A stretch of 64,000 nucleotides of DNA, taken from a phage. The stretch is taken from the sequence record PZ495249.1. One strand, given 5' to 3'. The notes beneath the pieces were generated by a model that saw nothing but the letters and a program-made list of their open reading frames with translations, was not told the origin of the DNA and did not search any database. The translations under genes were made by a program, and so were the position numbers. This document shows, in pieces, positions 1 to 64,000 of the stretch (positions within the stretch are counted from its first letter, which is position 1; each line of letters opens with the position of its first letter).

Positions 1-33
1 TGGGCGCAATGTCTAATAGTTATTTCCTATCAA

Positions 34-219
34 TTAAATATGATTGATAGCCACTACCTGATCAGGCTTAACACGGTTTTTTAGATTGTCAATCAAAATC
101 TCACCGTTATCAATCCCCAGGATCACGCCATTAACCATAAAGCCCCATTGATCACGATAACGCGCTTTTAAGCGCCCTCCGCGCTGTTCTATGGCCTTTT
201 CTATTTGTTCCAATGTCAT
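34..219 (-). CDS. hypothetical early protein (61 aa)
   Basis: track ORF; GGAGG upstream of ATG; part of leftward small-gene array. Confidence 0.55.
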   Translation of the reverse strand: MTLEQIEKAIEQRGGRLKARYRDQWGFMVNGVILGIDNGEILIDNLKNRVKPDQVVAINHI

Positions 220-284
220 TGGATAACCTCCGGTTAAAACTCGTTAGAAAGCGAAAGAGGCGCTATTCTGCGCCCCTTCTCTTA

Positions 285-422
285 TCACTCAATCCAGCCC
301 CGTTTCTCGGTGCGGTCGCGCTTTGTTTTGTTGCGCTTATCCCCTTTGCGGCTGGTATCTTCGTTCCATGCCTTGCGCGGTTTACCGTTACCCATTTTTT
401 CTACGTTGTTGGAACCATTCAT
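285..422 (-). CDS. small Lys/Arg-rich protein (45 aa)
   Basis: hand-called ORF below track cut-off; GAGGG RBS; leader hairpin upstream; frame checked against neighbouring track ORFs. Confidence 0.3.
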   Translation of the reverse strand: MNGSNNVEKMGNGKPRKAWNEDTSRKGDKRNKTKRDRTEKRGWIE

Positions 423-452
423 TTTTAAACCCTCGTTTTATTTTCAATGTTA

Positions 453-469
453 GCGGGAGAAGTTCCCGC
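453..469 (-). promoter_or_regulatory. leader/intercistronic stem-loop GCGGGA-N5-TCCCGC
   Basis: palindrome just upstream of RBS of ORF 285..422. Confidence 0.4.
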
Positions 470-484
470 CGTTGTTGTATCAGC

Positions 485-859
485 TTACGCTACGTTATGA
501 AACTTTGCAACCGCGATCAGTGACCCCGCCAGGTAAAGCCAGTAATTATCCCGCTCGCGGTCAATCGTTGCCTCGCGGCTGGTAGGCTTGAGATAACCCC
601 ACTCAATCAAAAGAGAATCAATCTCATTATAATAGTAAGCGTGGTTAATGTCTGACGGTAAACCCTGCAACCATGAGGCCATCGCTTTTAACACGTTGCC
701 ATTGTAGCGCTGCTGGTTTTCATAATACCAGTATTCAGAATTGAAACGGCGCATCAGTTCTGTAATCTTGCCCTCTTCACTGGTGATTAAGTCCTCTTTA
801 TGATCGTAAAACTCAATTGCTGCCAGGATGTAAGACTTGATTTTTTCTGCTGATTTCAT
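485..859 (-). CDS. hypothetical early protein (124 aa)
   Basis: track ORF; promoter and leader hairpin upstream. Confidence 0.6.
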   Translation of the reverse strand: MKSAEKIKSYILAAIEFYDHKEDLITSEEGKITELMRRFNSEYWYYENQQRYNGNVLKAMASWLQGLPSDINHAYYYNEIDSLLIEWGYLKPTSREATIDRERDNYWLYLAGSLIAVAKFHNVA

Positions 860-882
860 TTTGATAACCTTTTCATTGAGAG

Positions 883-899
883 GGGGAACCGCTCCCCCT
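883..899 (-). promoter_or_regulatory. leader stem-loop GGGGGA-N5-TCCCCC
   Basis: between promoter and start of gene 485..859. Confidence 0.4.
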
Positions 900-907
900 T
901 GAATACT

Positions 908-936
908 AATTTACTTTAAACCGTTTACCGTGTCAA
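908..936 (-). promoter_or_regulatory. sigma70-like promoter TTGACA-N17-TAAATT
   Basis: read on minus strand; upstream of gene 485..859; approximate coordinates. Confidence 0.5.
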
Positions 937-949
937 CCTGTTTTTAAAA

Positions 950-1312
950 TTATTCTTCGCTCTCTTCGGCTTCCAGGTCTGCGATCTCTTCCTCTAAGCT
1001 ATCGCGGCGCTCTTCCAGATCTTCCAGGTCGCTCGTTAACTCCTGATAGGCTGGCACTTCGTCAAGATCCATTGTCCCTTCATAGTCGCTTTTACCGCAA
1101 CGGTACGCCGCCGGATCAAGATTTTTCAGAGCATAGGACGGGCTAAACAATGATCCGCAAACGTCTATGTCTTCGTAGCAGTCATCGAGCATTGCATCAT
1201 ATTCCTCTTCGCTTGCTTCATAAGAGAAGTTGCGGATCTGACGCTCAGTTTCTGCAATATCACGGATCACACTTGCCAGTTCTGCGCGTTTCATTTCGAG
1301 GATAGTAGTCAT
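950..1312 (-). CDS. acidic early protein (120 aa, Glu/Asp-rich C-terminus)
   Basis: track ORF; consensus promoter at about 1380..1408. Confidence 0.6.
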   Translation of the reverse strand: MTTILEMKRAELASVIRDIAETERQIRNFSYEASEEEYDAMLDDCYEDIDVCGSLFSPSYALKNLDPAAYRCGKSDYEGTMDLDEVPAYQELTSDLEDLEERRDSLEEEIADLEAEESEE

Positions 1313-1379
1313 AATATTTTCTCTTCTGTTTAAGCGGGTGCATAATCCTATATTATGCTATTCCCGCCCCTTGATGAAT

Positions 1380-1408
1380 AATTTAATGCTTTTCGGTGAT
1401 GCTGTCAA
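1380..1408 (-). promoter_or_regulatory. sigma70-like promoter TTGACA-N17-TAAATT
   Basis: upstream of gene 950..1312; approximate coordinates. Confidence 0.5.
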
Positions 1409-1421
1409 CTGGTTATTGAAA

Positions 1422-1643
1422 TTATTTTTCTACTACCAATTGATACCAGGATTCAACATTGGTAAACACGATCCGTCCATCGTTACGCTCGGACATAAGC
1501 ATACAAGGCGATAACATACGCTCGGCGGCTTTACATTCAGCATAGACGGCGCTGATCTCACCTGGCTTGCTGTCATCAGCTTGGAAAGTGTCATTGATAA
1601 ACACGTTGCCAGCCACCAGGGAAATAATTGCAAATGTAACCAT
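1422..1643 (-). CDS. small secreted protein, signal-peptide-like N-terminus (73 aa)
   Basis: track ORF 1422..1655 trimmed to internal Met with GAGGT RBS; hydrophobic N-terminus. Confidence 0.5.
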   Translation of the reverse strand: MVTFAIISLVAGNVFINDTFQADDSKPGEISAVYAECKAAERMLSPCMLMSERNDGRIVFTNVESWYQLVVEK

Positions 1644-1644
1644 T

Positions 1645-1839
1645 TTAAACCTCACTATACCATGTTAAAAACTGCTGCTTTTCTGTTTCGGTAATATTGC
1701 GGTCTATACACAATTCACCATCATTGCAAGTGTAATCAAAAGCTAACGAAAGATTTTCAACACTGACAGATTTTTCATCCCACTCTAAAACCTCAGTTAG
1801 TTGGTTGAGTATACGTTGCATTTCGGATAGTGTCAACAT
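1645..1839 (-). CDS. hypothetical early protein (64 aa)
   Basis: track ORF 1645..1884 trimmed to internal Met with GAGGT RBS; longer form would run into the promoter. Confidence 0.5.
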   Translation of the reverse strand: MLTLSEMQRILNQLTEVLEWDEKSVSVENLSLAFDYTCNDGELCIDRNITETEKQQFLTWYSEV

Positions 1840-1883
1840 TTTAACCTCGTTAGATTGTTTGGTTTCTCTCTTCAATGGCTGCA

Positions 1884-1911
1884 TTATCTAACAGCCATTA
1901 CAGAAAGTCAA
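1884..1911 (-). promoter_or_regulatory. sigma70-like promoter TTGACT-N16-GATAAT
   Basis: upstream of gene 1645..1839; approximate coordinates. Confidence 0.45.
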
Positions 1912-2060
1912 CCGATCTCTTCTAATTTTTCTGTTCGCCAGGTATATTTGGTTAGCTTGCTTAACATCGCGCAACCTTCCGCATGAGTTAACGGCGAATC
2001 ATTCATGATCACTTTAACGCCTGTTTTATTGTTGACTACTACAACATTGTACTTTCTCAT
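1908..2060 (-). CDS. small hypothetical protein (50 aa)
   Basis: hand-called ORF; AGGAG 9 nt upstream of ATG; own promoter at about 2097..2124. Confidence 0.3.
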   Translation of the reverse strand: MRKYNVVVVNNKTGVKVIMNDSPLTHAEGCAMLSKLTKYTWRTEKLEEIG

Positions 2061-2096
2061 TGTTCCGGCTCCTGGTTTCTCTTCTCTATAGCGCCC

Positions 2097-2124
2097 ATTA
2101 TAAGGCGCTATAACGAAAAGTCAA
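2097..2124 (-). promoter_or_regulatory. sigma70-like promoter TTGACT-N16-TATAAT
   Basis: upstream of ORF 1908..2060; approximate coordinates. Confidence 0.5.
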
Positions 2125-2126
2125 CT

Positions 2127-2291
2127 TTATTTTTTCAGGCTCAAAGTGCCTTTGTTATCGGCATGAGACAAGCCAGGGAAGATCCAACCGTCTGCGCCTT
2201 TCACTGGTGCTTTAAGCTTCGCGCCTGTATTGGCGCTATTCACTTTACGGGCTACGTTGCGAGCGGCTTCACGGGTAGTCATTGCGATCAT
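2127..2291 (-). CDS. small hypothetical protein (54 aa)
   Basis: track ORF 2127..2348 trimmed to Met preceded by AGAGAGAG RBS; longer form would read through the leader hairpin. Confidence 0.45.
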   Translation of the reverse strand: MIAMTTREAARNVARKVNSANTGAKLKAPVKGADGWIFPGLSHADNKGTLSLKK

Positions 2292-2313
2292 GATGTTTCT
2301 CTCTCTTTGGTGT

Positions 2314-2335
2314 GGCGCGGGAACCATTCCCGCCC
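2314..2335 (-). promoter_or_regulatory. conserved leader stem-loop GGCGCGGGAACCATTCCCGCC
   Basis: between promoter and RBS; same sequence recurs at 3572 and 4492. Confidence 0.5.
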
Positions 2336-2346
2336 CTCTGATAAAC

Positions 2347-2375
2347 AATTTACGCTCTATTTAGTTCACTGTCAA
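2347..2375 (-). promoter_or_regulatory. sigma70-like promoter TTGACA-N17-TAAATT
   Basis: upstream of leader hairpin and gene 2127..2291; approximate coordinates. Confidence 0.5.
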
Positions 2376-2392
2376 GCTAATTTTGCGATAAT

Positions 2393-2506
2393 TTAAAAGC
2401 GGGTTACGATGAAATAGACAAGTGCTATCACCGCCCACGATGGAACCGCCAGGATCAGAGCATTAATAATGCCAGTGGTGAAGCAATTTGCTTTTTTGAT
2501 TAACAT
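2393..2506 (-). CDS. small hydrophobic protein (37 aa)
   Basis: hand-called ORF; single hydrophobic helix; promoter at about 2553..2582. Confidence 0.3.
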   Translation of the reverse strand: MLIKKANCFTTGIINALILAVPSWAVIALVYFIVTRF

Positions 2507-2552
2507 AGTGCATCCTCTTTGGTGTCGGCATCATTGCCGCCCTATGTGATGA

Positions 2553-2582
2553 ATTATGCGCCCCTCCTGGGCGCTTGTCAAT
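2553..2582 (-). promoter_or_regulatory. sigma70-like promoter TTGACA-N18-CATAAT
   Basis: upstream of ORF 2393..2506; approximate coordinates. Confidence 0.45.
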
Positions 2583-2585
2583 CCC

Positions 2586-3134
2586 TTATTTAAAATAATT
2601 TCGTAGGGCTTGCGCTGCCTCTTCCGGTGTCGGATGATACGGCGTGATCGCGTCCTCTTCCAGGACTACCGGATCAAGCTCCGGCTCTTCCTCCGGCGCG
2701 TTCTCTTCCTCCAGGAGTACAGATCCCGCCAGCTTATCGATCTTGCGCTGCGCCTTGTCTGCTTTCACGTCCAGGACTCGCAAGGCGCTACGATAAAGGC
2801 TCTCAGGCATCTTTCCCGCCTCATATGCTTTTGTAAGCGCTGCCACCTTGCCAGGGTACTCTAACAGCGTTTTAAACGCCGGATCTACCATCAGCAGGGG
2901 ATCGCCTTTCGCGTCATCTGCCGGATCTGCCGCCCCTGCAATGTCTGCCTGTCCATTTGGTAGCCAGCCTGGAACCGTGGCGCGGATCGCCGTGTTCCCG
3001 TTGTTACGCGCTACGCGCTGCCCCACTTGCTCGCCACTGTAGCCGCTTGCGTCATCCAGGAGATCAGGCGGGATCACCCTCCAATCATCCTCGTCATGCT
3101 TAACCCACGATTGAATAACATGCTCACGCCCCAT
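2586..3134 (-). CDS. hypothetical early protein (182 aa)
   Basis: track ORF; GAGGGG upstream of ATG. Confidence 0.6.
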   Translation of the reverse strand: MGREHVIQSWVKHDEDDWRVIPPDLLDDASGYSGEQVGQRVARNNGNTAIRATVPGWLPNGQADIAGAADPADDAKGDPLLMVDPAFKTLLEYPGKVAALTKAYEAGKMPESLYRSALRVLDVKADKAQRKIDKLAGSVLLEEENAPEEEPELDPVVLEEDAITPYHPTPEEAAQALRNYFK

Positions 3135-3137
3135 AGG

Positions 3138-3398
3138 TTAACCCCTCGTTACTAACTCACATACACGGTAAAGGCTCCCCGCATCTTTTGAAGGTAGCCA
3201 CCCGATCCGATACTTCCCGATCTCAACCTTCGTAACGTCCTTTACTTCGGCGTTACGGTGATTAAAGATAGTGTAACCGCCCCCACTCCGCTTGTAAACG
3301 TTTTCTTTAAACGTCATTGCATATCGTGCGAGATCATAGGCTGTTGAATCCATAAAGGCGATAACCTCGCCTTTACAGTTTAGAAACAATGGTTTCAT
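3138..3398 (-). CDS. hypothetical early protein (86 aa)
   Basis: track ORF; GGGGGAA upstream of ATG. Confidence 0.55.
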   Translation of the reverse strand: MKPLFLNCKGEVIAFMDSTAYDLARYAMTFKENVYKRSGGGYTIFNHRNAEVKDVTKVEIGKYRIGWLPSKDAGSLYRVCELVTRG

Positions 3399-3405
3399 TA
3401 CGTTA

Positions 3406-3552
3406 TTATTTCCCCCATCTGGTAAACCCCGCGCCCTGATTAGATTTTAACTCACGTTTCAAACGGGCGCAACGGCTCGCGATAGCGAAACGGGAGGGAG
3501 TTACAACGGTTGATCCGGTGTTGGTGTGGATTTTCATTACACGTTGTTTCAT
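3406..3552 (-). CDS. small basic protein (48 aa)
   Basis: hand-called ORF just downstream of promoter and leader hairpin; stop abuts start of next gene. Confidence 0.3.
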   Translation of the reverse strand: MKQRVMKIHTNTGSTVVTPSRFAIASRCARLKRELKSNQGAGFTRWGK

Positions 3553-3571
3553 AATCTTTCACCTTTGAGGA

Positions 3572-3593
3572 GGCGCGGGAACCATTCCCGCCC
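3572..3593 (-). promoter_or_regulatory. conserved leader stem-loop GGCGCGGGAACCATTCCCGCC
   Basis: between promoter 3603..3631 and ORF 3406..3552. Confidence 0.5.
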
Positions 3594-3602
3594 TTTGAGA
3601 TA

Positions 3603-3631
3603 ATATTAGCCCCATTCCTGGGACTTGGCAA
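3603..3631 (-). promoter_or_regulatory. sigma70-like promoter TTGCCA-N17-TAATAT
   Basis: upstream of leader hairpin 3572..3593; approximate coordinates. Confidence 0.45.
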
Positions 3632-3871
3632 CTATCTTACCGTAATTTTTTCACCTTTTACGATAATGTAAGTATGGCCTGAATTACTGTATTGATCGAC
3701 ATAGACACGGCGATCACGCCCCTGGAAATTAATTTTCCATTGAGTAGGTATTTTTGTACCATAGCCGGATCGTGTCTTAGAAAGTCCCGCCGTTTGCCAC
3801 CACAAAGGCGCTTCAATCGTCTCTACTTCCGCTAACAGTGAACCATCTTTTGCAATCAATAAAGTTTCCAT
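3632..3871 (-). CDS. hypothetical early protein (79 aa)
   Basis: track ORF 3632..3934 trimmed to internal Met with GAGAG..AAGAAG RBS; hairpin 3905..3924 lies upstream. Confidence 0.5.
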   Translation of the reverse strand: METLLIAKDGSLLAEVETIEAPLWWQTAGLSKTRSGYGTKIPTQWKINFQGRDRRVYVDQYSNSGHTYIIVKGEKITVR

Positions 3872-3904
3872 CTTCTTACTCTCTTCTGTTGGTGTAGGGG
3901 AATG

Positions 3905-3924
3905 ATAGCCCCTTTCGGGGCTAT
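3905..3924 (-). promoter_or_regulatory. intercistronic hairpin ATAGCCCC-TTTC-GGGGCTAT
   Basis: 8-bp GC-rich stem right after stop of gene 3938..4471; no clear U-run. Confidence 0.4.
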
Positions 3925-3937
3925 GGTCAAGCACTAT

Positions 3938-4471
3938 TTAGACGTTTTCAACAATACTTTTCAAGACGTCTACACCTTCCAGGAGATCACGCGCTGCACT
4001 GATCGCGGCTTCAATTGCATCCTCTTCGCCGCCGTGTTCTTTCCAGATCTCTTCTGCCGTGTCTAAGAGTGATCCTTCATCATCGTAGGAATAATCAAAA
4101 CCGCAACATACTACTTCACCGTCTAACAGGGTATGAGATCCGGCGGTAGCGTCAACCGTGAAATAGTAGTCATTGGCGGTAATGTCACGCGCTAATTGAC
4201 GCTGTAAACTTTCGTAAGCTTCACGGGACGGGTTAGCACGTCCTGCTTTCGCATAGTCTGCCGTGAGTTCTGCCAGCGTATACTGCTGAGGGATAGCATA
4301 TTTAAAGCTATTGCGATCTGCATCAGGGTTAGTAATAGTTACGCCGCCCTCGTGCGTGTCTGTCATTTTCCACTGATCCCCGAACTGGTCAAACGTGTAA
4401 GCACATACAACGTTAACAGTGAAATCAATGTTGTTACGGGAAAAGTTGAAAGTTTCAATGATATCAGACAT
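3938..4471 (-). CDS. hypothetical early protein (177 aa)
   Basis: track ORF; consensus promoter TTGACA-N16-TATAAT and leader hairpin upstream. Confidence 0.6.
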   Translation of the reverse strand: MSDIIETFNFSRNNIDFTVNVVCAYTFDQFGDQWKMTDTHEGGVTITNPDADRNSFKYAIPQQYTLAELTADYAKAGRANPSREAYESLQRQLARDITANDYYFTVDATAGSHTLLDGEVVCCGFDYSYDDEGSLLDTAEEIWKEHGGEEDAIEAAISAARDLLEGVDVLKSIVENV

Positions 4472-4491
4472 TTGGTTATCTCTCTTTAATT

Positions 4492-4512
4492 TGGCGCGGG
4501 AAACATTCCCGC
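4492..4512 (-). promoter_or_regulatory. conserved leader stem-loop GGCGCGGGAAACATTCCCGCC
   Basis: between consensus promoter and RBS of gene 3938..4471; no U-run, so not a terminator. Confidence 0.5.
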
Positions 4513-4525
4513 CGCCTATGAAGTG

Positions 4526-4553
4526 AATTATACGTTACTGGGTGAATCTGTCA
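4526..4553 (-). promoter_or_regulatory. sigma70 consensus promoter TTGACA-N16-TATAAT
   Basis: perfect -35 and -10 hexamers; upstream of leader hairpin and gene 3938..4471. Confidence 0.6.
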
Positions 4554-4562
4554 AGCGTTTAT

Positions 4563-4766
4563 TTACTCAATATCTAAAACTTTTTTCAGGCGGTTGATCT
4601 TCGCTTCGCGTTGCTCATGAGTGATCACGCACATTTCAACCAATGAATCAAGGAAAGCGGATACAATGCAATAGCCGTTAAAATCGTTTTCCTCTTCTTT
4701 CTCACAAAAGCCGTTCACGATCACTTTGATTGATTCAGTCGTCACTACTACATGTAATGTTGCCAT
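4563..4766 (-). CDS. hypothetical early protein (67 aa)
   Basis: track ORF; AGGAAG RBS; promoter at about 4818..4846. Confidence 0.5.
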   Translation of the reverse strand: MATLHVVVTTESIKVIVNGFCEKEEENDFNGYCIVSAFLDSLVEMCVITHEQREAKINRLKKVLDIE

Positions 4767-4817
4767 TTTCTTTTCTTCCTGTTATGCGGTGCGCCTCTCG
4801 CCTCGCCTTGTGTAGTA

Positions 4818-4846
4818 ATATTAGATCGCCGCCCCTATGCTGTCAA
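4818..4846 (-). promoter_or_regulatory. sigma70-like promoter TTGACA-N17-TAATAT
   Basis: upstream of gene 4563..4766; approximate coordinates. Confidence 0.5.
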
Positions 4847-4887
4847 CTACTACCATAAAATTTTTTATATATATTTCCCTGGTGCTT

Positions 4888-5067
4888 GAAAAATAAAAAA
4901 TTTTTTCACCTGGGAGTTCCCACAAAATTTTTTCGATTAGGTGGATCTCGTTTCGGAAATTTTCCTCTTACGTAAAACTCGTTACAAAAATTTTTCGACC
5001 TGGTAAAATCCGTTGGCGGAAAAAATTGAGATCCTAAAACTCAAATCAGCAAAAAATTTTCCTTGCG
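4888..5067. repeat. phased A-tract/T-tract array (AAAA(A)TTTT(T)C about every 30-35 bp, six copies)
   Basis: direct reading of the sequence; candidate intrinsically bent DNA. Confidence 0.5.
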
Positions 5068-5133
5068 CTTTCCTTGGTGTGGTGTATAGTGGTTATCAAG
5101 CCGCCACGGTGGAGGCACAAAGAGGAAATAACC

Positions 5134-5244
5134 ATGAAAGTTTACAGTGTATATGATGACGAAATTTGCAACCATTGCTATCACCCTAAGCGCTTAAAGT
5201 GGTGTTTTATCTGTAAGCAAGAGATGCAAAAACAGGGTAAATAG
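5134..5244 (+). CDS. micro-ORF with CxxC..CxxC zinc-ribbon pattern (36 aa)
   Basis: hand-called ORF; AGAGGA RBS; lone rightward ORF inside the non-coding control region. Confidence 0.3.
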   Translation: MKVYSVYDDEICNHCYHPKRLKWCFICKQEMQKQGK

Positions 5245-5246
5245 TG

Positions 5247-5276
5247 TTGACACGCCCCAGGGAACGGGGCTATAAT
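5247..5276 (+). promoter_or_regulatory. sigma70 consensus promoter TTGACA-N18-TATAAT (rightward)
   Basis: perfect hexamers; no obvious CDS downstream; fires into the repeat region. Confidence 0.5.
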
Positions 5277-5494
5277 CACCACATACAGAAGAGGACACGC
5301 CACCCCACGGCGTAAAGGCGGGGCTAACATACCAGGGCGCTGGTTGCAAGGTGGATCGCCGGTAGCTCGCCTCAAAAAAGTTTTGTAAAGATTGAATAAA
5401 GTGCTTGCGTCCTGGGTTGGTTGTGTTATTATGTATACATGGACAGGGGAACGGGGCTGGCGAGACAATCACCGGAGCTGCCCGTCATTCTGGA

Positions 5495-5595
5495 AATGCG
5501 AATGAGTCTCTTTTCGGTTTGTAGATGAGAATGATTCTCATTCAACTTTATAAACGAGAATGATTATCACTTGCAAATGAGAATGCTTATCATAC
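5495..5595. repeat. four operator-like near-palindromes GAGAATG(A/C)TT(C/A)TCA
   Basis: four spaced copies of an imperfect inverted repeat in about 100 bp. Confidence 0.5.
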
Positions 5596-5613
5596 TCATC
5601 CGGCAAATTTTCG

Positions 5614-5820
5614 AGAATTTTAAATTTTGCTTTTGGAAAAATGCAGATCGAAAAGTTAAAAAACTTTTAATAATTGGGGAATTTTTTGAAAATTTTAAAT
5701 TTTGGTTTTGGATTTTTCTGTGGTAAGATGCAGAAAAGTTTTAAATAATTCAGGGAAATTTTAAATTTTGCTTTTCAATATTTATTGAGCAACCTGGAGA
5801 AAAGTTTTAAATAGTTTGAG
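5614..5820. repeat. three tandem AT-rich direct repeats of about 70 bp
   Basis: GARAATTTTAAATTTTGSTTTTGG plus CAGAAAAGTTTTAAATA recur three times in the same order. Confidence 0.55.
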
Positions 5821-6049
5821 AGTGATTTTCAAAGTTTGTTTCCATATTGTTCGGACTGAGATGGAAATAGATTATCAAGTTATTACAACAACTTACAAGA
5901 TTGCTTAGAGTTTGATTTAAATATGGTGTTAAGAAGTTCAAACTGTGTCTATGAATTTACTGGTATGTTGGAGGTGAGGCTCCGAAATATTGAACCCCAC
6001 ACCCCTTATTCTAAAAACGAAAATTTTTAAAATATCAGATAATATCAGG

Positions 6050-6667
6050 TTAGCCTAACATCGGCAAGAAAAGTCGGTCGCCACTTAGAATTAGTTCTCT
6101 TTGAATTAATCCATAGATGACAAACCCGTGACCACACTTCTTATCCTCAGCATGAATCACATCGTAATAATCCATACCTAACTCCTGGTAGTGATAACCG
6201 TCGAAGTCTAACAGTGCAATTTTCTCACCATCATTAACCCGTTTCCATAAGTCTTTGAATGTATCTGTTTGCACCACTGCACGGGCGTACATTGGGAAGT
6301 ACAGGTTTCGACGGGCAGTGATGTAATCCAGTTTCTTGCCATCCCAGACACTATACAGAGGCTTTCTGCCTTTACCCATAGGGTAGCGTTCTGCTCTCCA
6401 GTTAGCCCAACCTGCTCGCGCCCATGTGTAATACGCTTCGGTTGGATCACCGTTCTCATCTACGTGCTCTTCGTACACTTTACTAAATTGCCAGGCGTTC
6501 TCCATATTCTTGGCTACAATGCCACCATACATAGGTATATCGCGCAGGTAGAACGGGCTAAGCTGCTGTCCGTATCCTTCTTTATCACGGCTGGTAGTGT
6601 TGACCACCTTAAACCCTTCCGGTACTTTGTCCCGCATACCAACCACGATTAGATTATCAAACTTCAT
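6050..6667 (-). CDS. hypothetical protein (205 aa)
   Basis: track ORF 6050..6739 trimmed to internal Met with GGAG-N6-ATG. Confidence 0.6.
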   Translation of the reverse strand: MKFDNLIVVGMRDKVPEGFKVVNTTSRDKEGYGQQLSPFYLRDIPMYGGIVAKNMENAWQFSKVYEEHVDENGDPTEAYYTWARAGWANWRAERYPMGKGRKPLYSVWDGKKLDYITARRNLYFPMYARAVVQTDTFKDLWKRVNDGEKIALLDFDGYHYQELGMDYYDVIHAEDKKCGHGFVIYGLIQRELILSGDRLFLPMLG

Positions 6668-6881
6668 TCTTATCTCCGTAGTTGTCGTGGTAGTATTGGA
6701 TGGCTTCTTCGAGATCCATTCCGCACATACCTGTTTCATTGATACTCACGGTGTATTTATTCTGATACCGTTGGATAACATTCCCTTCCTCGTCATGGCG
6801 AGTCCACCAACCTCCACCTGGGAGGATAGTAACCACATTGTTAAGGATAAAATCAAACATCTGTTCTTTAGTCAGTTTCAT
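6657..6881 (-). CDS. hypothetical protein (74 aa)
   Basis: track ORF 6657..6914 trimmed to Met with GGAGAAA RBS. Confidence 0.45.
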   Translation of the reverse strand: MKLTKEQMFDFILNNVVTILPGGGWWTRHDEEGNVIQRYQNKYTVSINETGMCGMDLEEAIQYYHDNYGDKNEV

Positions 6882-7098
6882 CAGGTTTCTCCGTAATCTC
6901 TTCGATAAAGGCAATCAGTGCTTGCCCTGCTTCATCAGCATTCTTGAGAGAGCGTTCGTAATTACTTGTCACTAAATCACGGCTTGCAGGATCAATCTGT
7001 GTGGGACGTAAATGATCCCACAGTGCCACCTGCCCTTCGTAGACACAGCAATTTTCAATCAGTGCTAATAGTTTCTGTTTTTCTGCTTGCGTAATCAT
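6868..7098 (-). CDS. hypothetical protein (76 aa)
   Basis: track ORF 6868..7143 trimmed to Met with GGAGGA RBS just after hairpin 7107..7134. Confidence 0.45.
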   Translation of the reverse strand: MITQAEKQKLLALIENCCVYEGQVALWDHLRPTQIDPASRDLVTSNYERSLKNADEAGQALIAFIEEITEKPDETD

Positions 7099-7106
7099 AA
7101 TTCCTC

Positions 7107-7134
7107 CACATGAAGAAAGCCCCTTTCGGGGCTT
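7107..7134 (-). terminator. rho-independent terminator
   Basis: AGCCCC-TTTC-GGGGCT stem followed by U-rich run on minus strand; after ATPase gene. Confidence 0.5.
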
Positions 7135-7139
7135 AGTTA

Positions 7140-8264
7140 TCACATAATCAGTGACAGGTTTGCACTTCGCGTTGTGCTTGGTTCCAGTACCACACGGAAG
7201 CTGTCGCCTGGTTCATCGCTGTACACCACCAGTTTACCACCTGCAATCAGGTCTGTCTTCCACTTCGTGGCGTTCAGGTGAATGCGTGGATCACCTTCAT
7301 CATCAATGATGACTGCGGAACATTCTTCGAATGCTTCCTGATTGTCCTGCGTTGCCGGACGCAGATAAACATCGAGGGTTTTGATGCCACTCAGGAATGA
7401 CATTGGATTGAATCCATGCCAGTTGCTAACCCAGTTCACTTCTGCCAGTTTACCGTTCACGGTGATATTGCTGATATCCCACTTGGCTTCGCCGCCCAGG
7501 GAAATACCCATCATATCCAGACACGCTTTGAAGGTCATGTCTTTGTAGAAGTTAAGCTCTTCCACGATGCCTTGAATCACATCGAAGGAGAGTTCCAAAC
7601 TCACATCCCACAGACGCTGGAAGCTTGCCTGATGCTCTTTATCATCGAGATTCTTATCCAGATAATCGAGCATTGTCTCCAGGGAGATCTTATCATAGTT
7701 GAAGCTGTAGAAGATACGGCTCGGACGGTTGATAAAGAACTCGGAGATGAAGCCGCTATTCTTGGTCAGAATAAACAGCTTGTTACCACTGCCTGTACCA
7801 TCCAAAAGCGTTAACAGCGCTTCCTGATCCTGTTTCTTCTCGTACACTTTGTCAAACTCATCGAAGATGACAATTGCTTTCTCTGCAATCTTGCTCATCA
7901 GTTCAATGAAATTGGCATCGCTATACGCTTGCGTTACCATAATAACTGGTAAACCCTCTGCTGCCAGTTTACGGCTAATCACCTTAGCCAGCATGGTTTT
8001 ACCGCTACCCTTTGTGCCGGATAAGAGAACACCTGTGTTCTTGCCCTGCTCCGCACGACGCTTGTAGGTAGAGATGATGTGCGATGCACGTTTCTCTGTT
8101 TCACCATACAGGACGCTTGGTACTCCTGTCAAATCCCCACGACTAAGGAAGTAGTTACCCAGTGGATCACGGCTCACTGTCCAGAAACCAGCAGGGAGAG
8201 TTTCGCTCTTGACACCTGCCTCTTTGTCCACTACTGCGATATCACCATAAATTGTGTATGACAC
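7140..8264 (-). CDS. P-loop ATPase (AAA-like), paralog of 24796..25956
   Basis: Walker A GTKGSGKT and Walker B IVIFDEFD; long blocks conserved with the 24796 gene product. Confidence 0.75.
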   Translation of the reverse strand: MSYTIYGDIAVVDKEAGVKSETLPAGFWTVSRDPLGNYFLSRGDLTGVPSVLYGETEKRASHIISTYKRRAEQGKNTGVLLSGTKGSGKTMLAKVISRKLAAEGLPVIMVTQAYSDANFIELMSKIAEKAIVIFDEFDKVYEKKQDQEALLTLLDGTGSGNKLFILTKNSGFISEFFINRPSRIFYSFNYDKISLETMLDYLDKNLDDKEHQASFQRLWDVSLELSFDVIQGIVEELNFYKDMTFKACLDMMGISLGGEAKWDISNITVNGKLAEVNWVSNWHGFNPMSFLSGIKTLDVYLRPATQDNQEAFEECSAVIIDDEGDPRIHLNATKWKTDLIAGGKLVVYSDEPGDSFRVVLEPSTTRSANLSLIM

Positions 8265-8278
8265 ATAACCCCCTTAAA

Positions 8279-8671
8279 TTATTTTTTAATCAACTGTGCT
8301 GCGTATTCAATCAGCCAAACTTTCGGTGCAATAGAGATGTAAGCCAACTGGAGAAGATTCGCGACAAGCATACTACCACCGACAGCTAAACCTACTACCC
8401 AGAAGATAAATTGTACGAAAGTACCCAACCCTTTTTCATACTGGTTCAGGTTTGGTTTGAATCTGTTACCCATTTTGCACAAGAACACCAGAATAACGAT
8501 ACCAACCACCATCCAAATCGAAACCTTCGCAATGTTCCACATGATAAGTTGATGGATAACTTCTGGAATTTGTTGTTTACCAAACTCCACAACATCGCTG
8601 ACGCTTTGTACTGTCACATCAATCATCTTGACCAGTAACTCACTTGCCTTTGCTTCGAGTGCCTCGTTCAT
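8279..8671 (-). CDS. membrane protein (130 aa)
   Basis: track ORF; AAGGAG RBS; hydrophobic segments. Confidence 0.55.
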   Translation of the reverse strand: MNEALEAKASELLVKMIDVTVQSVSDVVEFGKQQIPEVIHQLIMWNIAKVSIWMVVGIVILVFLCKMGNRFKPNLNQYEKGLGTFVQFIFWVVGLAVGGSMLVANLLQLAYISIAPKVWLIEYAAQLIKK

Positions 8672-8741
8672 GTTTTCTCCTTAGTGGATTAGTTTCTCTC
8701 AACAAGGAACACTTTACAGTGCTCCTCAGTGAAAGTCAACT

Positions 8742-9341
8742 TTATTTGAAGTTGCGCAGTACCAGGTTGGTATTCTGAATAGCGTTGATATCACGCTCAC
8801 TGTTACGAACCAGGAAAATACCGCCACCACTGGTGATCATGTCACGTTTAGCTACGAACACAGAGCGCAGGGACTGATCTTCGTTCAAAGCAACACAGAT
8901 ATCACCAGGTACGATGTTCAGGAATGTGAAGGTTTTATCGGTGTCCTTGCGGTACGTTGGCTGAGCCACACGAACACGCGCTGGTTTGCCGTTGAACAGC
9001 ACACGGATCGCATTACCTTTGATCTGGAACTTAGCTTTCGGTAGAACAGTTTCCAGAATGTTCGGGCGGGTAGAAGGGCTACGCGCTGTGCTAACCAGAC
9101 GGACATATTCACCTTGTTTTGGTTGCTCAACCATCACTTTCGCAGGTGCGGCAACAGGCGTTGCTTTTACGGTGGGTGCTTTCAGCTTAGCCATCTCACC
9201 TTCAACCTTCTCCAGCTTTTCCAGACGCGCATCAGCGAGAACAGACAAGCCGTATGATTTGGTTTCCAGATAATCAATACGTGCTTCCAGTTCAGCAACA
9301 ATCGCATCGTGAGTAGTTTTACGCATCAGACCAAAAATCAT
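8742..9341 (-). CDS. hypothetical protein (199 aa)
   Basis: track ORF; AGGAG RBS. Confidence 0.6.
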   Translation of the reverse strand: MIFGLMRKTTHDAIVAELEARIDYLETKSYGLSVLADARLEKLEKVEGEMAKLKAPTVKATPVAAPAKVMVEQPKQGEYVRLVSTARSPSTRPNILETVLPKAKFQIKGNAIRVLFNGKPARVRVAQPTYRKDTDKTFTFLNIVPGDICVALNEDQSLRSVFVAKRDMITSGGGIFLVRNSERDINAIQNTNLVLRNFK

Positions 9342-9355
9342 ATATTTCTCCTCTT

Positions 9356-9622
9356 TTAAAATTCAACACACTTGTCTAAGTGTTCCAGTTCAACTTCTGC
9401 CAAGGTTAGCATCTTAACTAAACCCTTGTCAATACCTAATTTGATTACTCCGTAATAATCACCAAACAAATCTGTGGGGCAGATCTCATGCTCAGTGACA
9501 ACCACTACCTCGTTACCAGCGACGTACTCACGCCACACCTTACCGCATTTCCACACATGATCTGCTGCATCATCAGAGATCATCTTCTGTTTAACTTTAA
9601 TCAAAACACCCTCGTTGTCCAC
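9356..9622 (-). CDS. hypothetical protein (88 aa), GTG start
   Basis: track ORF; first codon is GTG; overlaps stop of upstream gene. Confidence 0.5.
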   Translation of the reverse strand: MDNEGVLIKVKQKMISDDAADHVWKCGKVWREYVAGNEVVVVTEHEICPTDLFGDYYGVIKLGIDKGLVKMLTLAEVELEHLDKCVEF

Positions 9623-9846
9623 TCTTTACCAGAAGGATAATTACCTCGGCAAATCTTGCCGTCTGAATGCCAGTTTATGCTATCAGGGAACGTATGTCCA
9701 GCAATTTTTTCATGTGGGAGCCATTCTGTTGGCTTCTCATTCCCGTTGATCCACTTGAAACCAGCATCTTCAAGCAGTTCCAGTGCAAAGATCATATCAT
9801 CTTCACAATAAACCGTCATCTTCTGACCTTTAACGAAGTTCATCAC
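9601..9846 (-). CDS. hypothetical protein (81 aa)
   Basis: track ORF in tight array. Confidence 0.5.
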   Translation of the reverse strand: MMNFVKGQKMTVYCEDDMIFALELLEDAGFKWINGNEKPTEWLPHEKIAGHTFPDSINWHSDGKICRGNYPSGKEWTTRVF

Positions 9847-10178
9847 ATATCTCCGTAGCAGACGGTAATATCCATCTCTTTGCAGAGCTTATCCCAGGCT
9901 TGGCTACCGAAGCTGCGACCGCAAATGCAACTATATGCGAAGCAACATGCCGCATGGTACACTAAGGCTTCTGCATCTTCTTCGGCAGAAACTTCTTCTT
10001 GTTTGCCGTAACGCATATCGAACACCACTTTACCATCCTTTTCAAAAACATGCAAGTGGCTCTTAGCCTGGCTGTGGAGATCGGCATAATAAACACCGTT
10101 GGCACGTTTGTGCAACGAAACTTCAATATCGTTGTCAATCAGGTAGGACAGCATTTCTAATACGTTTGGGCTAAACAT
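9843..10178 (-). CDS. hypothetical protein (111 aa)
   Basis: track ORF; start overlaps neighbour stop. Confidence 0.5.
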   Translation of the reverse strand: MFSPNVLEMLSYLIDNDIEVSLHKRANGVYYADLHSQAKSHLHVFEKDGKVVFDMRYGKQEEVSAEEDAEALVYHAACCFAYSCICGRSFGSQAWDKLCKEMDITVCYGDM

Positions 10179-10187
10179 AATTTCTCC

Positions 10188-10595
10188 TTAGTTATACAGA
10201 TTGTTGAAGTATTTAGCAAAGAGTATACGCCCTTCGCGTTCAATGTCAAGACGTTCTGTACGTTTTGCAATATAATGTGGATCAGAGTGGTGGATGATAT
10301 CCTTACTTTGATCGAAAGCATCAATCATACGATCAACGACCCGCAGCCATTCCTTATCTGCCTGTTCAATCTGTTCTTCCGTATGCTCTCCCTGTGGGAC
10401 AGTTGGGAACATCTCACGCAGCAATAAACCAGGGACAGCGCGGAATGGATCATTCGCAATCACTACACGGAACTGGCACAACCCCTGAAAAATGATGGTG
10501 GCGAGAGTAGTATCCAGATCCAACACATCTTCTTTTTCCAGGATCACTTCGGTAATGGTGTCGCCTTTTTCATTCTTCATGTTCTTACTCCTCAT
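10188..10595 (-). CDS. hypothetical protein (135 aa)
   Basis: track ORF. Confidence 0.55.
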   Translation of the reverse strand: MRSKNMKNEKGDTITEVILEKEDVLDLDTTLATIIFQGLCQFRVVIANDPFRAVPGLLLREMFPTVPQGEHTEEQIEQADKEWLRVVDRMIDAFDQSKDIIHHSDPHYIAKRTERLDIEREGRILFAKYFNNLYN

Positions 10596-11055
10596 TTACA
10601 GCTTTCAATTTACGCAGGATGTTTTCCACTTCTGACATAGTTTTAGCTTCTTCAAGCTGGCTTGTCAAGCGAGTAATGATGCCTTTAATTACATCAGGAT
10701 TCGTCTTTGGCTCACGGCGGCGCAGAGCACTCATCTCTTCATAGTGCTTGTTCTCTACTTCCGTCACTTCGTTACGCCAATCCACTTCATCCATTGCGCC
10801 TTTACAGACGCAAGTGAAACCTGTCACATCGTAGTTGCCATAACGTGCAATGTTGGGTTGCAGAGGTAAGCCCTCGTTCCCGCAGTAGGCACACACTGGA
10901 CGACCATAAGTGCTGATCATTTTCGTGGGTTCAGCGTCACACTCACTATTCCAACTGATACGGTAGCTGGAACCATTATCACCATGTGAGGAACCAACAA
11001 AACCACGGCTAAAGCGGTCGTATGAACGTTCATCTGCGTAGTCAGGAATAGCCAT
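10585..11055 (-). CDS. hypothetical Cys-containing protein (156 aa)
   Basis: track ORF. Confidence 0.55.
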   Translation of the reverse strand: MAIPDYADERSYDRFSRGFVGSSHGDNGSSYRISWNSECDAEPTKMISTYGRPVCAYCGNEGLPLQPNIARYGNYDVTGFTCVCKGAMDEVDWRNEVTEVENKHYEEMSALRRREPKTNPDVIKGIITRLTSQLEEAKTMSEVENILRKLKAVNEE

Positions 11056-11068
11056 TTGAATTCTCCTC

Positions 11069-11362
11069 TTAGAATGCCAACACTTTCTTCGTTTCGGTAG
11101 GTGCAGTATCGAACAAGTCGATCACAAAGTCAAGCATTTTTATTAACTCGTTTGTGACATTAAACTCTTTATACGAACGGAGTTGAGTTTTCTCTTCTCC
11201 CACCTGGTGCAACACCTTAATCGGTGCATCCAGACGAATGTTACGATCTTCGTCCTCCTCGAAAGAAGCTAACCATTTCTCGTTAACACCGTGGATAGCA
11301 ATGATGATGCCATACCCTTCGGCTGTTTCTGAGATGTTCTTGGTAGATGCAATGATTTTCAT
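11069..11362 (-). CDS. hypothetical protein (97 aa), first gene of the leftward unit
   Basis: track ORF; AGAGGAG RBS; promoter at about 11392..11419. Confidence 0.55.
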   Translation of the reverse strand: MKIIASTKNISETAEGYGIIIAIHGVNEKWLASFEEDEDRNIRLDAPIKVLHQVGEEKTQLRSYKEFNVTNELIKMLDFVIDLFDTAPTETKKVLAF

Positions 11363-11391
11363 TTATTACTCCTCTTGTTTCAATACCGCCC

Positions 11392-11419
11392 ATCTTACTT
11401 GAAAAATATTTCATGTCAA
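11392..11419 (-). promoter_or_regulatory. leftward promoter TTGACA-N16-TAAGAT
   Basis: divergent pair with rightward promoter; -35 hexamers about 3 nt apart. Confidence 0.5.
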
Positions 11420-11422
11420 GTG

Positions 11423-11450
11423 TTGACTTTCATTTCTGGTTTGATAAGAT
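11423..11450 (+). promoter_or_regulatory. rightward promoter TTGACT-N16-TAAGAT
   Basis: 30 nt upstream of RBS of gene 11481..11969; strand-switch point. Confidence 0.5.
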
Positions 11451-11480
11451 TGTTGCATACAAAACGAGAGGAGACACCTA

Positions 11481-11969
11481 ATGTACAATCTGACCTGGAC
11501 TCAAGCCCAAGAAGCAATGCGTGAAGGTAAACGTGTTAAGAACAGCAACTTCACGGACGAAGAGTTCTTCTATATGGAAGATGGAAAGATCTGGGATGAG
11601 CAGGGCTACCCAATGGCTGGCTGGTATCGTGGCTACGATTGGCAGGAGGCAGGTTGGATGATCCTGGAAGACAACTTCAAACCTTTTGAAGAAGATATCT
11701 CAGAATCTGCCTGGAAAGAAGAAGAGATCCGTCTTACTGGTGCAGAACGCCAGAAGATGAAAGCTGTTATGCTTGGTGAAAACTATTCTGCACTGGAGGA
11801 GAAAGTTCTTGCACTTTACGCAGGGCAAGGTTATGATTTGGAAACTATGGATTGCTACGTTGGTATCACTCCACGATCTCCGACCTTACCTCGTGAAAAG
11901 GAGAACTACAACTTCCGTATCACGAAAGGTCGTGGTCATAACAAATTACAGAAGAGGAAAAAGAAATGA
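11481..11969 (+). CDS. hypothetical protein, N-terminus resembling DUF2829 (Tad2-like) fold
   Basis: track ORF; GAGAGGAG RBS; N-terminal W..A.EAMREGKRV...GW...DW pattern; first gene after rightward promoter. Confidence 0.6.
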   Translation: MYNLTWTQAQEAMREGKRVKNSNFTDEEFFYMEDGKIWDEQGYPMAGWYRGYDWQEAGWMILEDNFKPFEEDISESAWKEEEIRLTGAERQKMKAVMLGENYSALEEKVLALYAGQGYDLETMDCYVGITPRSPTLPREKENYNFRITKGRGHNKLQKRKKK

Positions 11970-12073
11970 TAACATTTCTGTTAGGGTTGGGTATCGGAAC
12001 ACTATTAGGATATATAGCTGTTGTTCTTATCGTTGGAGCAATAGCGGTTTTAATTTTAGATCTATTCAGTTAA
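11966..12073 (+). CDS. small hydrophobic protein (35 aa)
   Basis: hand-called ORF; ATGA start/stop overlap with upstream gene; one predicted helix. Confidence 0.3.
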   Translation: MITFLLGLGIGTLLGYIAVVLIVGAIAVLILDLFS

Positions 12074-63669: not shown

Positions 63670-64000
63670 TTATTCTCCAGTAGGTGGATCAGATTCACGA
63701 GAACTATTACCGCTCTGAACGTTACGGACTGTGTGGGTGTGGTTATGGAATCCAATACCGTTACCATCAGTCATCTTACCGCTTTCGTCGATAATTAAGC
63801 CGTTAATGTTTACTACGCCACCTTTCCATGTTAACTTACCGCCAGAGATGGTTAATGTTCCTGTACCATCCGTGATAGTTATTCCAGAAGGTGTCATATC
63901 CATTTTCATGCCTTGGCTATTGTAAATGGAAATAGTACCTGTCGGGTCGAATGAGGCGTATGTATTTTTATTGTTTGAGATAACCACTTTATCGGAGTCA
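63670..64000 (-). CDS. baseplate central spike-like protein, 5-prime end outside window
   Basis: reading frame open to window edge (track start is GTG at 63987); C-terminal GIGFHNHTHTV His-rich motif as in gpV-type spike tips. Confidence 0.5.
   Translation of the reverse strand, partial: DSDKVVISNNKNTYASFDPTGTISIYNSQGMKMDMTPSGITITDGTGTLTISGGKLTWKGGVVNINGLIIDESGKMTDGNGIGFHNHTHTVRNVQSGNSSRESDPPTGE

Follow-up and report, generated by a model that had tools for sequence, protein, structure and literature searches.

Small ORFan genes of a phAPEC8/rV5-type phage are probably carried in PeSL-type promoter-hairpin cassettes

Promoter-early stem-loops (PeSLs) are known from the T4-like phages RB49/phi1, PST/T4 and nt-1/KVP40 (Arbiol et al. 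2010, PMC2839356; Comeau et al. 2014, PMC4122927). The stem-loops of the RB49/phi1 PeSLs include G-T pairs and can be placed before the -35, between the two promoter boxes, on top of one of them or after the -10; PeSLs have strong promoter and terminator activity in lacZ fusions, recombine into mini-circles and are concentrated in hyperplastic ORFan regions (PMC2839356; PMC4122927). Bidirectional promoters have been predicted between genes 10 and 11 of phage rV5 (Kropinski et al. 2013, PMC3606486). Here we describe a 64,000-nucleotide stretch of phage DNA (record PZ495249.1; the window, counted from its first letter) in which small leftward genes between 0.9 and 4.9 kb stand behind near-consensus sigma70-type promoters that are combined with hairpins. 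All the features that define PeSLs at the sequence level are found here, in a lineage that is not T4-like.

Bases 1-12000 of the window are best matched by KP2025 (84% identity, 69% of the query covered), a Klebsiella myovirus of the subfamily Stephanstirmvirinae, followed by phi1_175008, FKP3, KP13-26 and FBKp34; phAPEC8-like coliphages give shorter and weaker matches. Because of these Stephanstirmvirinae matches we take the window to be a piece of a ~150 kb virulent phage of the phAPEC8/rV5 type, a Stephanstirmvirinae-type Klebsiella myovirus. The genes of the 0.9-4.9 kb array are all small and either belong to PHROGs of unknown function or have no PHROG match.

A consensus scan of 1-13 kb returned 45 promoter-like sites against 23.7 expected at a cut of 9/12 hexamer matches, and the strongest were nearly all on the minus strand. 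With a strict cut of at least 10/12 and expectations drawn from 200 dinucleotide shuffles, the interval 0.86-4.90 kb holds 10 sites on the minus strand versus 0.51 +/- 0.71 expected (shuffle maximum 3) and none on the plus strand, an enrichment of ~20-fold that is confined to the coding strand. The -35 hexamers on the minus strand start at 4846, 4554, 3930, 3631, 2581, 2375, 2124, 1911, 1408 and 936, with a further one at 1836. Ten sites are placed 31-67 nt upstream of start codons (measured from -10 to ATG) and account for 10 of the 13 leftward genes that lie between 485 and 4766; the remaining three are translationally coupled to a promoter-bearing gene. The ten score 9-12 of 12 hexamer matches at a spacing of 16-18 nt; the 22 nt upstream of the -35 are 77% AT compared with 54% in the background (P<0.0002), a conserved CA lies 6-8 nt past the -10 at the expected position of the start site, and among five relatives the hexamers are kept where spacers have diverged, for example at 4846. 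These features (near-consensus hexamers, spacing, AT-rich upstream sequence, conservation and enrichment) make recognition by host RNA polymerase with sigma70 well supported, and the in-silico promoter annotation of relatives is alike in the FBKp34 and phAPEC8 records and in the rV5 paper (PMC3606486). Early timing of the array genes is plausible by analogy.

A sequence-only reading of this DNA had already pointed to a dense array of sigma70 promoters here, and the array holds, though its details need adjustment. The reading counted at least ten elements of the form TTGACA/TTGACT-N16-18-TAnnnT; taken literally, the pattern occurs seven times in 0.9-4.9 kb, and the count reaches 10-11 once TTGACC or TTGCCA and CATAAT or GATAAT are allowed. 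In the whole window the literal pattern TTGAC[AT]-N16-18-TAnnnT occurs 43 times where 5.6 +/- 2.2 are expected. Two promoters had been called perfect: one indeed is, and leftward (4554..4527), while the other (5247..5276) is on the plus strand, beyond 4.9 kb, in a noncoding stretch. A promoter before almost every small gene is likewise correct for 0.9-4.9 kb and not for the rest of 908-11450, since 6.05-11.45 kb is sparse (3 sites at the strict cut versus 0.73 expected) and its genes are packed as an operon. What that first interpretation missed is that the promoters are parts of promoter-hairpin composites and that these bound mobile gene modules; the hairpins at the ORFan-region promoters are absent from its observation.

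The promoters of the ORFan region sit in composites of ~60-95 bp that run from an AT-rich stretch with an upstream stop codon through -35, -10, a GC hairpin and a Shine-Dalgarno (SD) sequence to the ATG. In 9 of 10 cassettes, which we name after the first base of the -35, a TAA or TAG precedes the -35 by 3-20 nt; the tenth, 4846, borders on the noncoding region, with no gene upstream of it. A purine-rich tract precedes the ATG in all ten. The hairpins are of three designs. In class (a) the hairpin is inside the spacer of ~17 nt (cassettes 3930, 3631 and 2581, and also the rightward site at 5247). In class (b) a stem of ~20 bp begins at the 3' end of the -35 and reaches about +24, and its 6-nt loop is the -10 hexamer (2124 and 1911). 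In class (c) the hairpin starts 2-7 nt past the predicted start site and typically reads GCGGGAA-NNN-TTCCCGC (4554, 3631, 2375, 2581, 1408 and 936). The cassettes and two related elements are as follows, with z giving stem-loop stability relative to shuffled sequences and matches referring to a class (c) covariance model.

4767..4846, minus strand: cassette 4846, before gene 4563-4766; TTGACA-17-TAATAT, AT-rich upstream, purine-rich SD; hexamers conserved and spacer fully divergent in five relatives.
4472..4554, minus strand: cassette 4554, before gene 3938-4471; TTGACA-16-TATAAT, the sole perfect leftward promoter; hairpin near the start site GGCGGCGGGAATGTTTCCCGCGCC, model match 4490-4518 (32 bits); ~90% identical in 7 Klebsiella phages; z -1.4, weak.
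3872..3930, minus strand: cassette 3930, before gene 3632-3871; TTGACC-17-TATCAT; spacer hairpin AGCCCCGAAAGGGGCT; z -3.8.
3553..3631, minus strand: cassette 3631, before the operon 3406-3552 / 3138-3398 / 2586-3134; TTGCCA-17-TAATAT; spacer hairpin and hairpin near the start site GGGCGGGAATGGTTCCCGCGCC, model match 3569-3597 (35 bits); z -2.4.
2507..2581, minus strand: cassette 2581, before a 37-aa gene at 2393-2506; TTGACA-17-CATAAT; spacer hairpin GCGCCCAGGAGGGGCGC and leader hairpin GGGCGGCAATGATGCCGAC; z -3.2.
2292..2375, minus strand: cassette 2375, before gene 2127-2291; TTGACA-17-TAAATT; hairpin near the start site GGGGCGGGAATGGTTCCCGCGCC, model match 2311-2339 (35.6 bits); z -2.2.
2061..2127, minus strand: cassette 2124, before gene 1908-2060; TTGACT-16-TATAAT; a 20-bp hairpin has exactly the -10 hexamer as its loop; z -6.3.
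1840..1914, minus strand: cassette 1911, before gene 1645-1839; TTGACT-17-GATAAT; -10 in the loop of a long hairpin; z -6.3.
1313..1408, minus strand: cassette 1408, before gene 950-1312; TTGACA-17-TAAATT; leader hairpin whose outer stem is GCGGG/CCCGC, with a further stem-loop inserted inside it; z -2.2; five relatives yielded no close counterpart.
860..936, minus strand: cassette 936, before gene 485-859; TTGACA-17-TAAATT; leader hairpin GGGGGAGCGGTTCCCCC, weak model match 876-904 (E 0.05); stem GGCGGG/CCCGCC in relatives.
1808..1836, minus strand: promoter-like site (11/12) overlapping the start codon of ORFan 1645-1839 (ATG-TTGACA...); status uncertain.
447..475, minus strand: intergenic hairpin of the same family GGCGGGAACTTCTCCCGC, with no recognisable promoter; repeat family D2; model E 0.23, weak.

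The hairpin at 447-475 may be a degraded cassette. A separate intergenic hairpin at 259-274 on the minus strand, also with no promoter, consists of GGGGCGCAGAATAGCGCCTC followed by TTTCGCTTTCT and looks like a true intrinsic terminator.

Folding and covariation both indicate that the palindromes are structured elements. Stem-loops are more stable than shuffles in seven of the ten cassettes (z -2.2 to -6.3); by class, z is -6.3 for (b), -3.2 to -3.8 for (a) and -0.7 to -2.4 for (c). Eight distinct class (b) sequences from five phages align nearly without gaps, with 96.9% of cells paired and 9 of 20 pairs changed on both sides, where slid controls pair at 47-61% and have at most three such pairs; the stem of cassette 1911, for example, changes from GGCTG/CAGCC to GCCCC/GGGGC and GCCTC/GAGGC among relatives. 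One U.G wobble of class (b) is invariant and another is present in 5 of the 8 sequences, and they pair on the sense (leftward) strand only, which makes a fold of read-through RNA more likely than a DNA cruciform or an antisense RNA. Compensatory changes among relatives are also seen in class (a), as in the stem of cassette 3930, where AGCCCC/GGGGCT has become CGCCC/GGGCG in FBKp34 and KP13-26.

Ten ungapped seeds were used to build a covariance model of class (c), which matches the 64-kb window only between 447 and 4518 on the minus strand, apart from one marginal match at 63691 (E 0.2), and antisense readings score about half the bits of sense readings. The model gave 21 distinct sense-strand matches in six phages, namely the window and five of eight relatives that were searched; pairing reaches 99.3% of cells, with compensatory changes in 3 of 7 pairs, compared with 37-67% pairing in slid controls. 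The alignment is model-fitted, so that the pair counts are biased towards structure. Divergent versions that the model misses keep their position and alter the stem or loop (GGGGGA/TCCCCC, GCGGCA/TGCCGC, GGCGG..CCGCC and the nested stem at 1408). Loop length ranges from 3 to 25 nt, which argues against a protein operator of fixed spacing. No Rfam 15 covariance model matched 1-12.5 kb at E<=1.

The same three designs are present in phAPEC8. Its record carries 20-nt features described as "putative promoter determined with PHIRE", each of which directly follows a TTGACA-N17-TAnnnT site and comprises the predicted start site and the 5' arm of the same class (c) hairpin. Because they lie directly downstream of such sites, these features are probably transcribed hairpins and not phage-specific promoters. 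The designs are found again in Cronobacter phage GAP31 and Erwinia phage Hena1, both Vequintavirinae, in the spacers around a homolog of gene 1908-2060.

170-197, 601-629, 1456-1483, 2472-2499, 3360-3388 and 4000-4027 of phAPEC8 (locus L007, JX561091): PHIRE features.
44-104, 303-382, 677-755 and 1722-1819 of GAP31 (locus L008): cassettes.
27-118, 858-960, 1300-1386 and 1816-1904 of Hena1 (locus L010): cassettes.

Outer stem pairs covary in the Vequintavirinae as well, from GCGGG/CCCGC to CCGGG/CCCGG. The occurrence of all three designs in GAP31 and Hena1 thus makes the cassette design common to rV5-type phages of two subfamilies, and it would either predate the split between Stephanstirmvirinae and Vequintavirinae or have been exchanged between them. 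Literature searches for transcriptomics, transcript mapping or a description of such cassettes in Stephanstirmvirinae, Vequintavirinae or FBKp34 found none.

Changes of gene content are concentrated at the cassettes. Homology breakpoints from blastn comparisons of each locus with five relatives were clustered for 0.9-4.9 kb, and 12 of the 18 clusters fall inside cassettes, which make up 23% of the sequence (binomial P ~8e-5), with three more within 12 nt of a cassette edge. Islands of homology that contain only cassette sequence (1831-1912 and the 64 nt of 2072-2135) persist beside genes that have been replaced. One event, the loss of a module, is more specific.

3592..4492, minus strand: two-gene module (3938-4471 and 3632-3871, with cassette 3930), lying between two direct hairpin copies and missing from FKP3.

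The direct copies (repeat D3) are at 3552-3592 and 4473-4513, 921 nt apart. FKP3 has instead a chimeric cassette that is of the 4554 type up to the hairpin and of the 3631 type after it, so that the crossover is inside the hairpin and 0.9 kb are deleted; FKP3 bases 5880-5899 align to both 3572-3591 and 4493-4512 of the window. A circle formed between the two copies would be 921 bp in size.

Two genes of the array have a distribution of their own. For the 64-aa open reading frame (ORF) 1645-1839 on the minus strand, neither PHROGs nor a tblastn search of 50,697 phage genomes gave a match; the ORF stands as an insertion between cassette 1911 and a conserved gene, 1422-1643, and its coupling to that gene is through TAAAATG. 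The 50-aa gene 1908-2060 (minus strand) has no PHROG match either. The T7-like coliphage pO91 has a partial homolog (aa 18-50) in its class I early region, the second gene past ocr, and further homologs are scattered in the Vequintavirinae, in GAP31 and Hena1; the homologous loci are L009 1150-1302, L008 1156-1299 and L010 961-1299. This patchy spread fits a horizontally shuffled early accessory gene.

The likeness to PeSLs extends to the order of parts (a stop codon in an AT-rich stretch, sigma70 -35 and -10, a GC stem-loop, SD, ATG), to the placing of the stem-loop in the spacer, over the -10 or downstream of it, and to G.T pairs. Both occur in ORFan-rich hyperplastic regions and at the junctions of indels or replacements between close relatives, here with one crossover within a stem-loop. 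The differences are that the lineage is phAPEC8/rV5-type and not T4-like; that the commonest class here begins past the predicted start site, so that it would belong to the cassette's own mRNA, whereas PeSL stem-loops have been described up to "just before" initiation; that the stem core GGGAA..TTCCC is conserved across subfamilies; and that promoter and terminator activity and mini-circles were shown for RB49, whereas the cassettes here are known from sequence alone.

We consider it probable that this region is a hyperplastic, ORFan-rich early arm in which most small genes lie in PeSL-type promoter-hairpin cassettes that also act as recombination linkers, with a separate bidirectional promoter at 11.4 kb. 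Host Esigma70 would initiate at each cassette soon after infection. The class (c) stem would then form a 5'-terminal hairpin that slows 5'-end-dependent mRNA decay and standardises the leader independently of the ORF that follows, a step based on what is established about stem-loop stabilisers at mRNA 5' ends in E. coli. Stabilisers of this kind, for example in the ompA leader, were reportedly described by Emory, Bouvet and Belasco in 1992. As in ompA, a stable stem stands a few nucleotides from the 5' end and is followed by an unstructured SD region; unlike there, sequence conservation exceeds what a generic stabiliser needs. Stems of classes (a) and (b) would form only in transcripts that read through from upstream, which they would attenuate, terminate or mark for processing, thereby insulating neighbouring cassettes; that the 20-bp class (b) stem is a substrate of RNase III is a conjecture. 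In the class I early region of T7, strong promoters for host RNA polymerase are combined with intercistronic hairpins that are processed by RNase III. Early transcription of small takeover genes by the host polymerase and long stems between genes would be shared with that region, but T7 has its promoters clustered at one end and makes a single polycistronic transcript, whereas here nearly every gene has its own promoter. Because of the shared identical patches of 20-45 nt, the cassettes can be seen as linkers for ordinary phage recombination, between which genes would be gained, lost and replaced. The pair at 11.39-11.45 kb, which is free of hairpins, would start a conserved leftward operon and the rightward replication module.

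Several observations weigh against this interpretation. The weak GC leader stem of cassette 4846 and the leader stem of cassette 936 fold no better than shuffles (z -0.1 and -0.7), and the pair counts of class (c) carry the bias already mentioned. The class (c) stem sequence is also more conserved than structure alone demands, and this may be the mark of a specific binding factor instead of a generic stabiliser. Hairpins of classes (b) and (c) are followed by A/G-rich or mixed sequence and have no U-tract, which makes classical intrinsic termination doubtful; spacer hairpins run into the -10 region, with just 4-5 U in 8-9 nt, and only the spacer hairpin of cassette 3631 (3608-3625) passed a terminator scan as terminator-like. 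Intrinsic termination was accordingly rejected as what the hairpins do in general. Since recombinants with a severed gene do not survive, any mechanism would leave breakpoints in spacers, and only the FKP3 crossover lies inside cassette sequence. Timing, promoter use and the role of the hairpins are all points that we infer.

These reservations give some room to the simpler view, in line with the sequence-only reading, that the region has plain sigma70 early promoters only, with hairpins that are unrelated terminators or incidental palindromes and with gene swapping that reflects selection for intact genes. Promoter enrichment is independent of the hairpins, two cassettes have no significant hairpin and intergenic breakpoints would be expected regardless. 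We nevertheless find this view unlikely: the hairpins hold fixed positions relative to the hexamers, covary and recur in three subfamily-level lineages, their lack of U-tracts does not fit ordinary terminators and the FKP3 crossover is inside a hairpin. Composition or chance in an AT-rich phage genome is hardly credible as the source of the sites. Loose scans do give many matches in any genome, as the 23.7 expected at 9/12 indicate, but shuffle tests refute chance, with 10 sites against 0.5 expected at the strict cut, none on the opposite strand and the excess of the literal pattern over the whole window; moreover, the sites are kept in relatives at fixed distances from start codons.

Two further explanations were weighed. 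It would be quite improbable, in our estimation, for the palindromes to act as DNA, either as repressor operators for early shut-off or as recombinase sites in an integron-like arrangement. The core GGGAA-N3-4-TTCCC is indeed kept across Stephanstirmvirinae and Vequintavirinae beyond the needs of pairing, one deletion has its crossover inside a palindrome and the authors of the PeSL work raised the same possibility (PMC2839356). Yet the U.G wobbles and a G.U variant (GCGGTAA/TTATCGC) pair only in sense-strand RNA, sense readings score about twice antisense ones, loops of 3 to 25 nt are unsuited to a dimer site of fixed spacing, no recombinase turned up beside the array (none was searched for) and an identity of 20 nt suffices for ordinary phage recombination. 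Very improbable is a reading of RTAGGGCGG...(hairpin) as a phage-specific promoter for a phage-modified or phage-encoded polymerase or sigma factor, with the sigma70-like boxes secondary. The 20-mer is highly conserved upstream of many genes and the PHIRE annotation of phAPEC8 implies such a function, and class switching of transcription in the relatives is discussed only speculatively in the literature searched (PMC3606486). In every case examined, however, a near-consensus -10 with a fitting -35 precedes the motif by 7-14 nt; the pairs of the motif covary and its loop varies in length, which is how a folded or transcribed hairpin behaves and not a linear promoter; cassettes of classes (a) and (b) lack the motif and retain the sigma70 boxes; and homologs of T4 gp33, gp45 and gp55 were not found by the rV5 authors (PMC3606486). 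A dedicated factor might also act on the core GGGAA-N3-4-TTCCC (hairpin GGGAAUGGUUCCC) as a phage RNA-binding regulator, nuclease or recombinase, a speculative idea that we regard as quite improbable. If it were true, a dedicated nuclease or regulator would shut off the whole early class together, and a dedicated recombinase would make this an integron-like gene-cassette system in virulent phages.

The promoters at the strand switch are of another kind; an internal site to their left is listed with them.

11363..11480, both strands: bidirectional promoter block with short leaders, GAGGAG SDs and no hairpins.
11419..11392, minus strand: P-left, TTGACA-16-TAAGAT.
11423..11450, plus strand: P-right, TTGACT-16-TAAGAT, with TG before the -10.
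10222..10249, minus strand: internal promoter-like site (11/12) 44 nt ahead of gene 9843-10178, within the 3'-terminal part of ORF 10188-10595; kept in relatives, no hairpin.

The two -35 hexamers of the divergent pair are separated by 3 nt, as the sequence-only reading had described for 11.39-11.45 kb. The four hexamers, the 3-nt gap and the TG of the rightward -10 are invariant in KP2025, phi1_175008 and FKP3, where the first gene on each side varies. Predicted structure is not significant against shuffles at the divergent promoters or at the internal site 10249. Annotations of rV5, FBKp34 and phAPEC8 are similar in that consensus-like host promoters, predicted in silico, extend over the early and replication regions with a divergent pair at a strand switch; they differ in that promoters and terminators are listed separately and composite cassettes are undescribed, the hairpin being named a "PHIRE promoter" in phAPEC8. 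In KP2025, phi1_175008 and FKP3 an extra leftward gene of 231 nt adjoins the bidirectional promoter (L001 14454-14684), which the window does not have (~11358-11372). Before the ATG, the ORFan cassettes (860-4846) mostly have AAAGAGAGA or AAAGGT-type purine tracts, in contrast to the canonical GGAG or GAGGAG of the conserved operon's genes (6050-11480) and of both divergent leaders; translation signals are thus another difference between the two promoter classes. An Srd-like anti-sigma factor, as proposed for rV5 gp11, was considered for the first rightward gene (11481-11969) and is unsupported, its PHROGs being families of unknown function only.

The strand switch had also been taken to mark the early/middle boundary. 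The sequence does not bear this out, since sigma70-like sites carry on along the rightward replication module: the literal pattern occurs 20 times on the plus strand and never on the minus strand from 11.45 to 48 kb, the coding strand has 13 sites at the strict cut versus 4.6 expected, and the coding-strand enrichment is lost only in the tail module past 48 kb. Judged by promoter content, the clearer change appears to be at ~48 kb, at the start of the tail genes. A conserved bidirectional promoter that would launch two divergent units is the better description of the pair at 11.4 kb, and the sequence gives no reason to place those units in different temporal classes. Five exact TTGACW-N16-18-TAnnnT matches on the plus strand (51205, 56208, 57897, 59773 and 62690) are antisense to tail genes and above chance for that span; they could be antisense promoters or coincidence.

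The gene layout around these elements was taken from ORF lists and a Pharokka-type annotation of phi1_175008. No tRNAs were found in the 64-kb window.

4766 to before base 1, minus strand: small leftward genes.
4.86-6.05 kb (4853-6050): noncoding stretch of 1.2 kb that interrupts the leftward genes.
11362 to 6050, minus strand: tightly packed leftward operon, with an ATPase among its genes.
11363-11480: strand switch.
11481 to 47886, plus strand: nucleotide-metabolism and replication module (NadR, PnuC, RIIA, RNR, helicases, primase, DNA polymerase, SSB).
From 47929, minus strand: tail genes, leftward.
5247..5276, plus strand: perfect promoter TTGACA-18-TATAAT with spacer hairpin GCCCCAGGGAACGGGGC, in the noncoding stretch and outside the leftward array.

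Phased AAAAATTTTTT-type tracts occupy 4853-5064 of the noncoding stretch, and 5135-5244 is a small ORF in the rightward direction that encodes 36 aa with two CxxC pairs. The palindrome ATGAGAATGATTCTCAT is present four times at 5490-5593, and an AT-rich repeat of ~61 nt three times at 5615-5816. The make-up of the stretch suggests a replication origin or a regulatory hub. A small structured RNA driven by the promoter at 5247 was also considered and is unsupported, as the 118 nt downstream fold like shuffles (z -0.03) and have no Rfam match.

Host-type promoters and the divergent pair as such are unremarkable, having already been annotated or published for relatives. What the composites add is that PeSL-type cassettes, formerly described only in T4-like phages, now probably extend to a second, unrelated group of large myoviruses and to two of its subfamilies. 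They correct the database annotation of phAPEC8, in which the "PHIRE promoters" are probably hairpins downstream of sigma70-type promoters, and they define two covarying structured elements, one with the -10 hexamer exactly in its loop, that may serve as handles on mRNA stability and insulation. The compact promoter/hairpin/SD units are also candidate standardised expression parts for Enterobacteriaceae. A second lineage of such cassettes would support cassette-bounded shuffling as a general route by which virulent phages trade accessory genes.

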